From: Escherichia phage saus132
Sequence record: NC_047884.1
DNA length: 64,000 nucleotides
Direction: 5' to 3' (one strand)
Below are positions 28,273 to 64,000 of the stretch, in pieces. Each line of letters opens with the position of its first letter. Within the stretch, counting starts at the first letter, position 1. The position numbers were made by a program, and so were the translations under genes. A model generated the notes under the pieces. It was not told where the DNA came from. It saw nothing but the letters and a program-made list of their open reading frames with translations, and ran no database searches.

Positions 28273-28303
28273 GAAACCCCAGTGGACAATCCACTGGGGT
28301 TTC
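28273..28303. terminator. Bidirectional terminator at early/late boundary
   Basis: GAAACCCCAGTGG-acaa-TCCACTGGGGTTTC with T/A runs on both sides; convergent genes meet here. Confidence 0.6.
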
Positions 28304-28328
28304 TTTATATTACGTATATATATATATA

Positions 28329-29654
28329 TTATGAGTTATCTGGCGTAATGAGCTCGCTCACAAGTTTTTTCAGTTCGTCTAGCTCTTGTTCTAAAGTAGC
28401 AACTTTTAGTTTCAATTCGTCTGTTTCCTTCTGTTGCTTATCATTATCCTCAATTATTTCTTTAATTGCGTTGGTGAGTAACGCCGTCACACCTGCATAG
28501 TTAATTGAAAGATAATCCGTGTCTGCTACTTTGTAGACAGCTTCTGGTAAAACAGTTACAACGTCTTGAGCAATTAAACCAGCTTCTTCCGTGTAAAAAG
28601 AATGTTCGTTTTCCTCTAAGCTATTACGTTTGAAGTAGGTGTATCCCTGTAAGACTTTAACTTTATCTTTTGCGGATACTATTTCTTTTAACTGAGCTTT
28701 AAGGCGTATATCAGATGTGCTTTGCCATGCGACGGCCGTAGCTTGTCCCGCGCTATTGAAACCATAAGATGTATTTCCAACTAGAAGACGCTGGTAGGGG
28801 TTCCCATCCCCATAAATAACAACATCAGCGCCAGATGCAAAAGTATCACCCCATCTAACTGATTTCCAAATATTTACACCGCCGTCCCTAGACGGGATTT
28901 CCACTAACAGACCAGCCGCCCGATCTCGCCATTCACCATGACCGCCAGCTTGCACTTGACCCGCTATAAGCGCACTACCGGCCCCAGCACGAACACCGTA
29001 TACATACATACCACGAGAGTCATTAGGCGCTGAACTGGAGATAGCGCGTAGGGTGGAAAATCCATTCCCATTAAAAGTACAGAGATTAAGTGAATCGGTA
29101 TAAACATCTAAAACACCATCACTACGCTGTGCAAATCCAGTGTCACTATCACCAATAGCAATAGATCGAGCACCTAAACCCTGTGCGTCACCCGGAGTAC
29201 CAATTGACATACGATCGGTTACTGCTAATGTTGCTGTACGGGATTTGCCAGAAACACCCAAAGCGTTAATAGATAAAAGCCCTGAATTATTGAACGTACA
29301 ATATGATTCTATATTATTTGATAGATTCTTAGTGTGAATTACGGTTTGGGTTTCACCAGTGGCACCATTAATCGCATTATAAAAACGCGATTGGGAACGT
29401 GCCGAGCCTGACGTAGAATATAATGTACTATGATAGATCCCACCATTAGTAGATTCAATATCATAACGAGTAAGAGCATTAACACCGCTAAAGGTAACAG
29501 TTTGACCTTCGCCTAATCGAAGATTAGTACGAGCACCGTTTACATCTGTTGCACCTGTACCGCCAGCACCAATAGGAAGAGCTGATGTAGCGTTATCGCT
29601 ATTTCTAGCAACTCGCCAATCGCCATTATTAGCAATCCGGAGTTCATATGTGGC
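28329..29654 (-). CDS. ltf: L-shaped tail fibre, C-terminal part in frame with upstream ORF (no own start); ends in intramolecular-chaperone (S74) domain
   Basis: Frame open and in phase from the TAA at 29655-29657 down to 28329 (2928 nt overall, divisible by 3); no ATG/GTG before the track's TTG at 29261; C-terminal LKAQLKEIVSAKDKVKVLQGYTYFKRNS is S74 chaperone-like. Confidence 0.7.
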   Translation of the reverse strand, partial: ATYELRIANNGDWRVARNSDNATSALPIGAGGTGATDVNGARTNLRLGEGQTVTFSGVNALTRYDIESTNGGIYHSTLYSTSGSARSQSRFYNAINGATGETQTVIHTKNLSNNIESYCTFNNSGLLSINALGVSGKSRTATLAVTDRMSIGTPGDAQGLGARSIAIGDSDTGFAQRSDGVLDVYTDSLNLCTFNGNGFSTLRAISSSAPNDSRGMYVYGVRAGAGSALIAGQVQAGGHGEWRDRAAGLLVEIPSRDGGVNIWKSVRWGDTFASGADVVIYGDGNPYQRLLVGNTSYGFNSAGQATAVAWQSTSDIRLKAQLKEIVSAKDKVKVLQGYTYFKRNSLEENEHSFYTEEAGLIAQDVVTVLPEAVYKVADTDYLSINYAGVTALLTNAIKEIIEDNDKQQKETDELKLKVATLEQELDELKKLVSELITPDNS

Positions 29655-31256
29655 TTATGGGTTAGTAAATGCGTTATAATCACCTAAAGTAGTTCCAGTT
29701 GTTTGTCTAACAGAATCAACGCCGAGATTCCCTCGAGCTGAAACTTTATCTGTAAGGTCCGCGAGGTTCTGGTCCTTTTTCAAAGACGCTTGCATAACCT
29801 GTGCTGCAGATGCAGCCGCTGTCTCCGCTCTATCTGCTGCACTGGTGGCGTTAGTAGCTTTCTCACTTGCCGTTGTAGCGCTACCAGCGGCCTCTGTAGC
29901 CTTTTGCGTAGCTGTGGTAGCCTTTTGTGTAGCTAAAGCCGCAGCATCTTCTGCTGCTTCTCTCAGCGGTGTCATTGCGTTCAGTGATTCAGTTTTAGCA
30001 GTATTAATAGCGTTAACACCAGCGACCTTGGCTGTGTTAACACCACCAATCGCGCTAGATTTAGCACTTCCTATTGCCGTTAACGCTGCGTCTTTTGACT
30101 GGGTAATGCTGGTTGTTGCATCCGTTTTAGCGGTATTAATTTCTCCAACAGCACCGTCTTTAATAGTTTGCGTGTCGCTCTTTAACTGCTCAACGTCGGA
30201 CTTAAGATTCTGTACTGTGATCACAGCTTGCATAGCAGTACTCGCGCTACCTGATGCAGCTTGTTGAGCTAACTTAGCAGCGTCTTCACTAGCTTTTGAG
30301 TTAATTTCGCTAGTCTTTGCATTAGTTTCTGAATTTTTTGCTGCTAATGCTGATGTAGAGGCTTGTGTAGCGAATGTTTCTGCTTCATCTCTGAATCCTT
30401 TGGATTCAGAGGCAGAGGCAGCGGATAGGGCAGCATTAGTCTCACTATTTTTTGCTGCTGCTGCATATGCTGCTGCATTAGTCTCACTAGTTTTTGCCTT
30501 AGTCTCACTAGTTTTTGCATTAGTCTCACTAGTTTTTGCATTAGTCTCACTAGTTTTTGCCTTAGTCTCACTAGTTTTTGCATTAGTCTCACTAGTTTTT
30601 GCTGCTATTTGTGATGTAGCAGCAGCATTTTTACTTGCTAATGCATTAGTTTCGCTAGTAGCAGCATTCATAGCCGAAGTAGCTGCCGCTAATTCGGAAG
30701 CTTTAGCGTTAGTCTCTGAAACTTCAGCGTTAGTCTCAGAAGTTTTTGCTGCTGTTTGTGAAGCTGCTGCCGCATTTTTACTTGCTAATGCATTAGTTTC
30801 AGAAGTCTTGGCATTAGTCTCAGAAGTTTTTGCGTTAGTTTCAGAAGTTTTTGCTGCGTTTTTGCTTGCTAAAGCTGCTATTTCAGAAGCCTTAGCACTA
30901 GTTTCAGAAGTCTTGGCATTAGTTTCTGAAGTTTTAGCATTTGTAGCAGAAGTTGCTGCGGCTGTTTGAGAGGCGGCAGCTGCATTTTTACTAGTTAATG
31001 CATTAGTCTCGGAAGTCTTAGCGTTTGTCTCAGAAGTTTTTGCATTGATTTCTGATGTTTTTGCAGCATTCTCAGAATCTTTTGCTGCCGCAGCAGAAGC
31101 AGCAGAGGCCTCAACAGCCGCTGTTAGTTGACCAGCAGTAATAGAACTAATAGAATTACCTAAAACTACTGTATATTTAGGATACTTACTAGCAGTAGTT
31201 GTAGTGTCATCTATGTTCAGAGTCTGCTGTACAATAATTTTAGTTTTAAGTGCCAT
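29655..31256 (-). CDS. ltf: L-shaped tail fibre (pb1-like), N-terminal 533 codons ending at an in-frame TAA
   Basis: N-terminus [17 protein letters not shown]...; about 30 heptads of AKTSETN type; fibre motif NLADLTDKVSARGNLG. Confidence 0.8.
   Translation of the reverse strand: MALKTKIIVQQTLNIDDTTTTASKYPKYTVVLGNSISSITAGQLTAAVEASAASAAAAKDSENAAKTSEINAKTSETNAKTSETNALTSKNAAAASQTAAATSATNAKTSETNAKTSETSAKASEIAALASKNAAKTSETNAKTSETNAKTSETNALASKNAAAASQTAAKTSETNAEVSETNAKASELAAATSAMNAATSETNALASKNAAATSQIAAKTSETNAKTSETKAKTSETNAKTSETNAKTSETKAKTSETNAAAYAAAAKNSETNAALSAASASESKGFRDEAETFATQASTSALAAKNSETNAKTSEINSKASEDAAKLAQQAASGSASTAMQAVITVQNLKSDVEQLKSDTQTIKDGAVGEINTAKTDATTSITQSKDAALTAIGSAKSSAIGGVNTAKVAGVNAINTAKTESLNAMTPLREAAEDAAALATQKATTATQKATEAAGSATTASEKATNATSAADRAETAAASAAQVMQASLKKDQNLADLTDKVSARGNLGVDSVRQTTGTTLGDYNAFTNP
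30300..31080. repeat. Tandem 21-bp repeats inside the tail fibre gene
   Basis: Perfect copies of ATTAGTCTCACTAGTTTTTGC around 30476-30603 with degenerate copies on both sides. Confidence 0.85.
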
Positions 31257-31678
31257 TATTTAGTTACTCCATCGCTGATGTATACTTTACCTTCCATAAT
31301 ACGGAAAGAATTGACTTCAGAGCCAATCACATCACGAGTCATTAGGATATCATAATAACCAGCAAAACGTTGTCTTGGGTTATACTTATCACGTTCTTTA
31401 GATGCTTTTTCACCAATATTAGTAGTGTCTACAATGGAAAGACTAATTGCAGCAGCACCTTGAGCAGCATCAATAACATGAGTTTTAAAGTTAGCTAGAA
31501 CCTCGGCGTTCTCATCTAGACTAGATTTAATAGTTCCTCGGAGTGAATATCCGGTTAAGTTAATAGGAACTTCTGTTGGTGGATATACACTGTCGTCAAC
31601 ATCCATAAACTGCATGATAAGACCATAAGGCACTTTCTCATCAACAATAATATCAATAACTCGGTTTTCTGTACTCAT
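31256..31678 (-). CDS. Tail-tip collar protein (T5 p132-like)
   Basis: 140 aa, position between baseplate genes and fibre; stop overlaps fibre start (TAATG). Confidence 0.55.
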
Positions 31679-31683
31679 TATAA

Positions 31684-33741
31684 TTACCTTATATGGATAT
31701 ACCCACTATTTAGGTCTATCTTCATCTTGTAGTATGCTTCAGGGTTTCCTGATAACGCAGCATTTCTATCGTATATTATATTAACACCTATTTGTGATAA
31801 GAAGGCATTTCCTGCCACAATCTTATCAGCAGTTACAGTTCCATTAACAATCATGTTGCCATGAAGAACCATTGCAGGGTTAATCCATCCACCCCCGTTC
31901 CATTGGCGGGTAAATGCTGTTTGTGGAGCATTACTGTTAAATTGTGTTAAGACATCGTATTTAACTGGAGGTTTTCCAAAGTTATTTTGGAAGAATGCAT
32001 TAGCCTGTCCATCATCCCAACCACCTAATCCAGGAATACCCATGGAGTACATCCCAGGACCACGCTGTCCATCACGCCCTATAGTACCTTCAGTACCACT
32101 CCACTGAACCACATCAGACCAGCTAGTACCTTCAAGAAGTTTGTTAGTAACTGGATCAAGTGTACCAGTAGTAGTATAGATATTTTGTGTCATATCTGTA
32201 CGATTAGGTGGAGTTTTTGACCAACCAGGAGGTGGATAATCTTGTTCTAGCGGTTTGGTGGGTAGAGATGTTGCTAACTTATAAACAAATACTGTTTGTT
32301 TACCCTGTAATCCAGTACCAATATCTACGTCACCATTTGGTGTTCCAATTACTACACCACTAGAAATACGTAGGGTAGTACCATCATAACGTATCCATTG
32401 TGTAGCATTACCAATATCTAATTTAGCTTTGGCAGAGGTATTATCCATGCCCATCCAAATACCAGAGTTATTATCTCCCCAAGATTTACCTTGAGTGTAA
32501 ATTGCTGGATTATCTTTACCAGACAAGTTAGTCATAATAAAGTTTGCAGCATTAATATCTCTAGTGATTACTTTACCATCAACGTTAACAACACGGTTTA
32601 TAGGGTCGAAAGAAATAGGTGCTTTACCTTCTCTATCTAGCAGACCAATGTTAATAGCACCAGTAGCTGCATCAATTAGGAATGTTTGTCTCCATATTTC
32701 CCCATCTTTCATACTACCCTTAATAAAGGCATAGTTAACATCAATACCCGTCTCATTGACAAAACTATTATCTAGAGGAGTATCTTCATTCAGAATAAAT
32801 GTTACAGGAGCTGATTCTGTTATATCTTGTTTGTTTGGTCCCCAGGCAATTGATGAAACCTTAAAGGTATGTTCAACTTTCCATGGGAATGATATAATCG
32901 TTGCAGCTCTAGCAGCACCCACGTTTATCTTTTGAGCTTTAGCCCATCCGGTTTTAGCGTATTCCTCGGAGTTTATATAAGTAACCAAGAACTCACGAAC
33001 ATTAGCACCAGCACCGCGTTCCCAATCCCACTCAATTCTAACATCATATCGTTCTTTACCATCAGCAATTCGTGCAGCTTTAAAAACAATATCGATAGGT
33101 GCAGTAGGAGGAACAAAATTATAAGCTACAGTTAGAATACTAGGGGACTCATAGTAACCAGAAGAATCAACTGTAACACCATCAGGCATAGTTACTTGAC
33201 CAGATATTCTGATCTTATAATCTCCGATAGGAACTCCACCAAATTTAATAGTAGAACCTAAAGCCCCAATGTAATACTTAGTCCAAGGACTATCTTCCGT
33301 GGCTGTACTTTTTAACTCAATAGTACAGTAACTTGCTTCACCAGTAGTTTCCACAACAACTATCGGTGCGCCCACCCCAACATCCACTGGTTCTGACTCA
33401 GACCTTGCTGTAACAATTATTGGCTTCTCTTTTGTTTTAAAGTTAGTTTCATTAGAGAGGTTAATACCAATTTTTGCATTTAAAAGTTCTGAGTCAATAA
33501 TTGAGTCATAAAAAGCTCCCTGAACCTGATAGGTAGTTGAGGGAGTTAAATTATTGATCATAACAAAGAAAGTGTCGATCCCAGTGAAATCTCTTCTATC
33601 CACTTCTTCGCCAAGTTTAAGCCAGAATGATCTACCGATAACATCGTAGTCGGTATAGATAGAATGCTGGATATACGCCATCGTATACCCAGTCATAATA
33701 CTATTTAAGACCATCTTGGCTGGTGCATTATTAGAAATCAT
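31684..33741 (-). CDS. Baseplate/central fibre protein (T5 pb4-like)
   Basis: 685 aa; synteny downstream of hub protein; size close to remembered T5 pb4. Confidence 0.6.
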
Positions 33742-63417: not shown

Positions 63418-63472
63418 GAATACTGTATAAATATACAGTAGAATAACCTGTTGATAAGTCTGTGGATAACGC
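63418..63472. repeat. Right arm of long inverted repeat (contains DnaA box TGTGGATAA and palindrome)
   Basis: Reverse complement matches 61192-61247 at about 90 percent; further GGTGGATAA at 63522. Confidence 0.85.
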
Positions 63473-63562
63473 CTCAAAATCGCTAGGATTTTGTCAAGTC
63501 AAATCGTGCTGTTAATAAACCGGTGGATAACTTAAATAACAGTGTTTCTCACTTCGCTTTGT

Positions 63563-63706
63563 AAATGCGAGTCACTCTCATTATCATTCGCGTTTCCCTT
63601 CCTAAATGCAAATCATTCTCATTCGTATTCCGGTAGTCAAATGATAACTATTCTCATTCGCATTCAACTTCTCAAATGCGAATCAATCTCATTATCATTT
63701 GCATTT
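63563..63706 (+). repeat. Iteron array 1: four tandem ~36-bp units each containing an inverted pair AAATGCGAAT...ATTCGCATTT
   Basis: Units start at 63563, 63604, 63639, 63674. Confidence 0.8.
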
Positions 63707-63743
63707 CGGCAGGCAGGGCATTTTCTATTTGCCCTGCGCTTTT

Positions 63744-63966
63744 GTGCAAATCCGACATTTGCCCCCACGGATTACGTGCCAGCGTGCATGTGCGAATCCG
63801 ACAATTTTTGGTAGTGTGCAAATCCGATGGCAAATATTTTTTATATGTGCGAATCCGACAATGAATTTTCCTAAAAACTCCAGCAATCCGCAACTGCGAT
63901 GCAATCCAGCTGGGTTTACTAGAGTATGTGCAAATTCGACAAGTGTTAAGGTGTGCGAATCCGACA
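63744..63966 (+). repeat. Iteron array 2: six same-orientation copies of GTGCRAATYCGAYR (array may continue beyond window)
   Basis: Copies at 63744, 63790, 63816, 63847, 63929, 63953; shares core TGCGAATC with array 1; perfect hairpin GCAGGGC/GCCCTGC at 63713-63737 between arrays. Confidence 0.8.
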
Positions 63967-64000
63967 AGATTTTTGTGACTTCGATGAGAGGGTGTGTGAT

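Follow-up and report, generated by a model that had tools for sequence, protein, structure and literature searches.

The best described counterparts of the fibre analysed here are LtfA of phage DT57C and pb1 of T5 (PMC10713586, PMC10038345, PMC4690869), both of which share with it the position of the gene after ltfC/p132, an N-terminal anchor, a long helix from about residue 40 (predicted in the fibre analysed here) and an S74 chaperone. In the cryo-EM structure of DT57C, the N-terminal segment of LtfA is woven into the LtfC collar, and its helix begins at T40 and joins a coiled coil of three helices that extends outwards from the collar; the solved model reaches only the first turns of this helix (PMC10713586). 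These fibres are not always required: the lateral fibres of T5 are dispensable, truncation of pb1 in T5-hd1 results in a fibreless phage in which the collar is also missing (PMC10038345), and the fibres of DT57C are unneeded on rough hosts such as C600 (PMC10713586). Tandem duplication within LtfA has been described in DT571/2, where a tandem 19-aa motif, VDSALADKADIATTYTKME, occupies aa 478-542 and its duplication accompanied a rearrangement of the fibre (Golomidova et al. 2016, PMC4728585).

In this study we analysed a window of 64,000 nucleotides from Escherichia phage saus132 (NC_047884.1), corresponding to the final 64 kb of a 121,986-bp record (window position 28300 is record position 86286), whose lateral tail fibre gene carries a long run of heptads including a 21-bp tandem array. 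AKTSETN-type heptads are also carried by T5 pb1 itself (locus L029 in our comparison); the run in the window is longer and more repetitive than that of T5, with a 20-heptad cassette and a young six-unit array. Its distal receptor-binding part differs from those of DT57C LtfA and T5 pb1, and its gene is truncated by a nonsense codon. The window and DT571/2 both present, within the shaft of their T5-like lateral fibres, an in-frame tandem repeat of varying copy number; in DT571/2, however, the 19-aa unit is not a heptad and lies at another position, and its change was observed directly in a laboratory mutant, whereas copy-number change in the window is deduced from the comparison of natural genomes only.

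Fibritin (gpwac), a trimeric coiled coil divided into segments, reportedly varies in length among T4-type phages. Like the fibre of the window, it is heptad-based and differs in length through gain or loss of coiled-coil segments, but it has a conventional hydrophobic core, segments separated by loops and a C-terminal foldon, and it lacks a near-perfect tandem array at the DNA level. The neuO gene of prophage CUS-3 carries a tandem heptanucleotide repeat that encodes a heptad coiled coil (NeuO) and varies in copy number, as in the window; its unit is 7 nt and copy number also switches the reading frame, whereas the unit in the window is 21 nt and changes length only. In size-variable surface fibres of bacteria such as the streptococcal M protein, intragenic recombination between tandem heptad-based repeat blocks gives rise to coiled-coil length variants; the M protein is bacterial and dimeric, and immune selection acts on it.

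Screening of a phage collection with megablast returned, for the region 28300-31700 of the window, a full-length match of 100.0% to the T5-like phage poul149 (MF431738, Epseptimavirus saus132) and matches of 99.9-100% to its siblings chee130_1, saus176N, chee158 and cott162, together with partial matches to 328 T5-like phages, mostly of Salmonella and Escherichia. The heptad region (30300-31080) falls inside a minus-strand ORF of 533 aa (29655..31256), located directly downstream of ltfC/p132 in a tail-tip module of the order pb3-pb4-p132-ltf, which annotated relatives share (Table 1). The product of the collar gene also matches the PHROG 'collar tail protein for L-shaped tail fibre attachment', while PHROG tail-fibre families match both halves of the fibre frame, the 533-aa ORF strongly. 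Furthermore, residues 1-60 of the fibre are near-identical to DT57C LtfA (PDB 8hqz chain d, E=1e-34, phmmer against PDB), and the N-termini align across 28 IMG/VR homologues, T5 included. The ORF encodes the homologue of T5 pb1, the L-shaped (lateral) tail fibre; a first-pass annotation of this DNA, made from the sequence alone, had already recognised a tail fibre, and the ltfC/pb4/pb3 context, the PHROG families and the match to DT57C LtfA bear it out. Because a Pfam scan of the 533-aa product yielded zero families at E<=0.01, the heptad run is without a curated domain model.

Table 1. Features of the lateral tail fibre locus, with positions in the 64-kb window.
Feature	Position	Strand	Basis and remarks
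pb3-like gene, 949 aa	33742..36591		Homologue
pb4-like gene, 685 aa	31684..33741		Homologue
ltfC / p132 collar gene, fibre attachment ring, 140 aa	31256..31678	-	Pfam PF23926 LtfC, E=7.7e-14
L-shaped (lateral) tail fibre gene, T5 pb1 / DT57C LtfA homologue	28329..31256	-	976-codon frame with one internal TAA at codon 534; intact 975-aa allele in chee130_1
N-terminal anchor, aa 1-40, putatively inserting into the LtfC/p132 collar	31137..31256	-	Near-identity to DT57C LtfA, cryo-EM (PMC10713586); non-helical in AlphaFold
33-heptad AKTSETN-type run, aa 58-288, predicted part of a coiled-coil shaft	30393..31085	-	Single register; predicted helix 41-334; 21/84/105-bp periods
Lineage-specific 20-heptad cassette, aa 78-217	30606..31027	-	blastn block boundaries against 12 relatives; heptad-wrapped sequences
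Young six-unit 21-bp array, aa 219-260, AKTSETN/K x6	30477..30602	-	Four exact and two one-mismatch units; copy number varies here, from 1 to 6 units among relatives
Second shaft segment predicted as helix, aa 340-519, shifted heptad register	29700..30239	-	AlphaFold helix; heptad wrap
In-frame ochre stop TAA, codon 534	29655..29657	-	CAA (Gln) in sibling isolates; SNP table (PMC5816814)
Distal fibre, codons 535-975, with C-terminal Peptidase_S74 intramolecular chaperone at ~28533-28715	28332..29654	-	PF13884, E=2.7e-10; PHROG tail-fibre families
Antisense ORF, 189 aa, TTG start, (A)LVSLVF repeats; by-product, not a gene	30400..30969	+	ORF listing; codon shuffles

The fibre frame does not end with the 533-aa ORF, but runs on past the TAA at 29655 to 28329, so that the S74 domain lies in the same frame as the N-terminal 533 aa, yet is cut off from them by codon 534. 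Frameshifts between the two annotated ORFs were first suspected and were rejected, the frame being continuous across this single TAA. The sibling chee130_1, which differs by one base, has CAA at this codon and an intact gene with S74, and chee158 carries a separate Gln-to-stop change at codon 767. Both changes are listed by Svab et al. 2018, whose phages were isolated and propagated on E. coli K-12 C600 and MG1655 (PMC5816814). The window thus carries a nonsense-mutant allele of a member of the T5-type L-shaped tail fibre family. Unless the TAA is read through, the isolate most likely makes only an anchor-plus-shaft fragment of 533 aa and has no functional fibres, by analogy with truncated pb1 in T5-hd1. 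The receptor-binding tip and the folding chaperone would thus have been lost, probably because rough K-12 propagation hosts can be infected without the fibre. The phage of the window (poul149/saus132 type) is then probably fibreless or equipped with shaft stubs only, and its host range on smooth strains should not be equated with that of the intact allele of chee130_1. The stop at codon 534 had no place in the first-pass reading of the fibre gene.

At the DNA level, Tandem Repeats Finder identified, as the first-pass annotation had anticipated, a repeat with a period of 21 bp (30474-30602; 6.1 copies, 96% matches, score 244), and degenerate 21-, 84- and 105-bp periods covering 30697-31046; with a score cut-off of 60, the 64-kb window contains just one further tandem repeat, a weak one with a 35-bp unit at its very end (63604-63693). 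The 21-mer ATTAGTCTCACTAGTTTTTGC occurs exactly at 30477, 30519, 30540 and 30582 (n=4), and with one mismatch, an A to C change by which Lys replaces Asn, at 30498 and 30561. Three additional copies carry 1-3 mismatches, and 0 matches to the 21-mer were obtained in dinucleotide shuffles. The six-unit array described earlier at 30476-30603 is consequently real, but not all of its units are exact as had been claimed: four are, and two have one mismatch each. The six units consist of a 63-bp block of three heptads (N-K-N) that is perfectly duplicated in tandem, with exact period-63 identity across 30474-30602. Arranged head-to-tail, near-identical and of a length divisible by 3, they have the unit structure of a VNTR-type array.

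On the minus strand, 33 heptads follow one another in the same register, amounting to 231 aa, in line with an earlier estimate of about 30 heptads and ~210 aa. Position 1 (a) is Ala in all 33 heptads and position 4 (d) is Ser in 32 of the 33, while the types present include AKTSETN (11), ALASKNA (3), AKTSETK (2) and AAASQTA (2). An AlphaFold model, run as a monomer on the single sequence without alignment (mean pLDDT 64.8, pTM 0.25), left residues 1-40 without structure and predicted an unbroken helix over residues 41-334, followed, after a short break at aa 335-339, by a second helix over residues 340-519; pLDDT within the heptad run was mostly 65-83, falling below 50 at residues 183-202. In this single-chain model the heptad region thus lies within one long helix. 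Because the homologous fibre of DT57C starts as three helices, a helix is predicted here and the a and d positions are invariant, the heptad run most likely forms a trimeric coiled-coil shaft whose core is made up of the small residues Ala and Ser. The rise of a coiled coil is ~0.148 nm per residue, at which the 33 heptads would measure about 34 nm and one unit would contribute about 1 nm of rod.

A core of Ala and Ser is unusually small and polar for a coiled coil, which counts against this model. Among the structural matches, those in PDB to the C-terminal heptads of RNA polymerase II RPB1 were discarded as low-complexity noise, and those to Klebsiella depolymerases (7vyv, 7vz3, 7lzj) were not taken as structural evidence, the similar segment being unresolved in Depo32.

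The copy number of the array was compared among 28 homologous IMG/VR loci, found via the neighbouring collar gene, and 13 annotated phage records, by counting units back from the conserved AAAYAAAAK junction, just 5' of which the array sits. Across 15 fibre genes of varied sources and countries the array contains 1, 3, 4, 5 or 6 units: one in ZBSTP12; three in bobsandoy, L004, SE20, vaffelhjerte, rutana and L022; four in MET_P1_137_112; five in PMBT31, 1Sgal2PP and misterkot; and six in the window, S114, CitS1 and GRNsp8. All of these alleles are in frame, and the flanks on either side of the array are conserved at the DNA level within groups. Repeat number is therefore not invariant across relatives, and the proposal that the repeat could vary shaft length between isolates holds for the comparison between phages. 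The array is identical among the siblings compared: chee130_1 and chee158 differ from the window by point mutations only in a base-by-base comparison, and saus176N and cott162 match it over the full 3401 nt in one ungapped piece. There is likewise no copy-number difference among the four closest lineages, with six units each. Since the siblings are identical and these four lineages agree, the rate of turnover may be low.

Beyond the array itself, the compared fibres share the N-terminal anchor, which is followed by a heptad-periodic region differing greatly in length and sequence, from a few heptads in L028 through roughly 25 in T5 to over 50 in L030. When fibres of related groups were aligned in pairs, indels in the domain proved to be mostly of whole heptads (7, 14, 21, 28, 35, 56, 77, 91, 98, 105 and 112 aa), these counts being pairwise and hence not independent, and some gaps of 1-4 aa being edge or alignment artefacts. 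Few gaps are not divisible by 7, the notable case being a 10-aa deletion in L019. A regex-based strict heptad counter undercounted diverged heptads, and the anchored array count and pairwise gap lengths were used instead.

The four six-unit phages differ in the order of their unit variants, which are distinguished by the Ser codon (AGT or TCT) and by the final residue (Asn, Lys or Ser). The Ser codon is AGT in 6/6 units of the window and TCT in some of the positionally equivalent units of S114, CitS1 and GRNsp8; distinct units number two in the window array, as opposed to five in each of the other three. Between the window and S114, 8.7% of positions differ in the array, compared with 1.0% in the 300 nt upstream. 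The array of the window is homogenised, and the pattern of variants is the mark left by recurrent loss and gain of units, or by conversion, inside the array, with slippage or unequal recombination as the probable mechanism.

The heptad domain is mosaic as well. In blastn comparisons with 12 relatives, homology to other Epseptimavirus fibres stops at gene nt ~229 and is regained precisely at the array's 5' border (gene nt 652-655, window 30602-30605). The 20-heptad cassette is common only to the window, S114, CitS1 and GRNsp8, and its 3' boundary abuts the six-unit array; it holds an older 8-heptad duplication, ~79% identical at an offset of 210 nt. The domain is thus a record of nested duplications that differ in age, with the young array at a module boundary.

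These observations suggest the following scenario. An anchor of ~40 residues would thread into the LtfC/p132 collar and lead into a very long alpha-helix, three copies of which most likely pack as a trimeric coiled coil with Ala (a) and Ser (d) in the core. The shaft probably grew as whole heptads were duplicated in tandem in a nested fashion, the diverged multi-heptad blocks, with their 84- and 105-bp periods and the 8-heptad duplication, being the older products, and the exact 63-bp, three-heptad duplication the last event in the young array. Replication slippage or unequal recombination would add or remove 21-bp units, and since 21 bp make up seven codons and thus one coiled-coil heptad, gain or loss of a unit maintains both the reading frame and the helical register. 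The structure of the fibre should tolerate such gains and losses, and the copy number of the array would drift. We consider it very probable that the locus as a whole is explained by a drifting heptad array in the proximal shaft of a lateral fibre, combined with a nonsense allele.

A bolder reading takes the AKTSETN units as recombination linkers for swapping or resizing shaft cassettes, given that homology returns right at the array's 5' border, with shaft length, which indels elsewhere change by up to 16 heptads, selected to match the depth of the host's O-antigen or capsule layer. This reading seems to us doubtful, although, if true, shaft length would be a tunable determinant of host range separate from the receptor-binding tip.

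A full-text search of the literature for AKTSETN and its shifted forms found no mention of the motif or of its copy-number series, and literature on heptad or tandem-repeat tail fibres in general yielded nothing specific; repeat regions in the fibre gene are already flagged in the GenBank records of related phages. The feature is of an ordinary, already known kind, length-variable fibre repeats being usual in phages, and the tabulation of copy numbers is a small descriptive addition rather than a new kind of feature. Its importance beyond annotation is small. A shaft that changes length in whole-heptad steps helps to align, annotate and engineer T5-like lateral fibres, and the six-unit array with the adjoining mosaic boundary offers natural junctions for the design of chimeric fibres. 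If length affects adsorption on hosts bearing O-antigen, it would add a modest new parameter for host-range engineering.

Other explanations might account for parts of these data. Rich in Ala, Ser, Thr, Asn, Lys and Glu, the heptad run could be a flexible, disordered low-complexity linker in which copy number sets tether length only. Hydrophobic residues are indeed scarce, the would-be core consisting of Ala and Ser only; AlphaFold confidence is moderate and falls below 50 at residues 183-202, and a similar helical-bundle segment of the Klebsiella phage depolymerase Depo32 is invisible in cryo-EM. A disordered tether, however, would not be expected to keep 33 units strictly on a period of seven residues and unchanged at a and d, indels respect the heptad, and AlphaFold predicts an unbroken helix from the single sequence, while the homologous helix of DT57C is resolved as a three-helix bundle at the exit of the collar. 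We therefore regard disorder as unlikely and prefer the coiled-coil shaft. Short-read assembly is another conceivable source of the variation in copy number, and perhaps of the perfect array as well, since exact tandem repeats can be collapsed or miscounted in such assemblies, and the window phage and its siblings were assembled with SPAdes from 2x150 Illumina reads (PMC5816814). But the whole array measures 126 bp and is thus shorter than a single read, identical counts are found in independent genomes of varied sources and countries (three units in six genomes, five in three, six in four lineages), the flanks are conserved, and internally distinct units make each array unambiguous, which leaves an artefact very improbable.

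A near-perfect tandem repeat within a host-recognition gene also calls to mind a phase-variation (contingency) switch turning the fibre on and off. With a unit of 21 bp, divisible by three, the frame never shifts, as the in-frame alleles of 1-6 units attest, and inactivation in the window isolate is due to a point nonsense mutation elsewhere in the gene; we give such a switch practically no credence, and retain the drifting array of whole heptads. Only slightly less implausible is the reading of the antisense ORF as a real overlapping gene for a hydrophobic repeat protein. The antisense frame is open in S114, CitS1 and GRNsp8, and its ratio of synonymous to non-synonymous changes is similar to that of the fibre frame. 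These three relatives, however, are 93-96% identical, and counts of synonymous and non-synonymous changes cannot separate the two frames because the antisense frame shares its wobble positions with the fibre frame. A synonymous-shuffle test consequently took the place of substitution counting: when the fibre codons were reshuffled synonymously, a stop-free antisense stretch of at least 189 codons arose in 22% of trials and one of at least 150 codons in 52%. Besides that, the ORF begins with TTG and its sequence is merely the complement of the heptads. The earlier dismissal of this ORF as spurious is hence upheld by the shuffles that are equally open, a long antisense ORF being expected here because the heptads are poor in Tyr, His and Gln.

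The gene for the L-shaped tail fibre is interrupted by an in-frame TAA at codon 534, where the sibling isolate chee130_1 has CAA, and a second sibling, chee158, carries a separate change from Gln to stop at codon 767 (sibling-equivalent window position 28958) that is independent of the first. Because two parallel nonsense mutations have thus arisen in sibling isolates propagated on K-12, our results suggest that loss of the fibre is selected for, or tolerated, in these isolates. The fibre gene of Salmonella phage GRNsp8 (locus L002, 2637-5512), the closest relative spanning the proximal half of the gene, is disrupted as well; it is annotated as frameshifted in GenBank, and the last residues of the 827-aa translation are read out of frame.

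The shaft is also mosaic. Similarity to most other Epseptimavirus fibres is lost at about nucleotide 229 of the gene and returns precisely at the 5' limit of the array of six 21-bp repeats, and the 20 heptads enclosed by both boundaries are specific to the lineage comprising the window, S114, CitS1 and GRNsp8. An additional ORF on the fibre strand looks like a by-product of the repeats, as does the antisense ORF.

Features of the fibre gene and of the end of the record (window coordinates)
Feature	Position	Remarks
Nonsense codon 534	29655-29657	
Second predicted helical shaft segment	29700-30239	LKSDVEQLKSDTQTIK-type motifs
Second repeat-derived ORF, 82 aa (MRLMQKLVRLRQKLVRL...)	30344..30592 (-)	fibre strand, different frame
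Mosaic boundaries	30602-30606 and 31027-31028	homology breaks vs most other Epseptimavirus fibres
Repeat-rich stretch	63440-63980	end of record, apparently non-coding

The motifs of the second shaft segment presumably resemble the heptads of Braun's lipoprotein. Units of this type, of 18/36 aa, also vary in number in the related fibre genes of loci L016-L021, at roughly aa 250-400; L021, for example, carries a duplication of 36 aa when compared with L018.

In the repeat-rich stretch, TGTGCGAATCCGACAA-like 21-mers occur five times and the DnaA-box-like motif TGTGGATAA twice; there are also three to four 35-bp AATGC.AATCATTCTCATT units, for which inverted-repeat partners are present. The stretch is probably part of the terminal-repeat region of T5 type, which has been described as the signal that stops injection.
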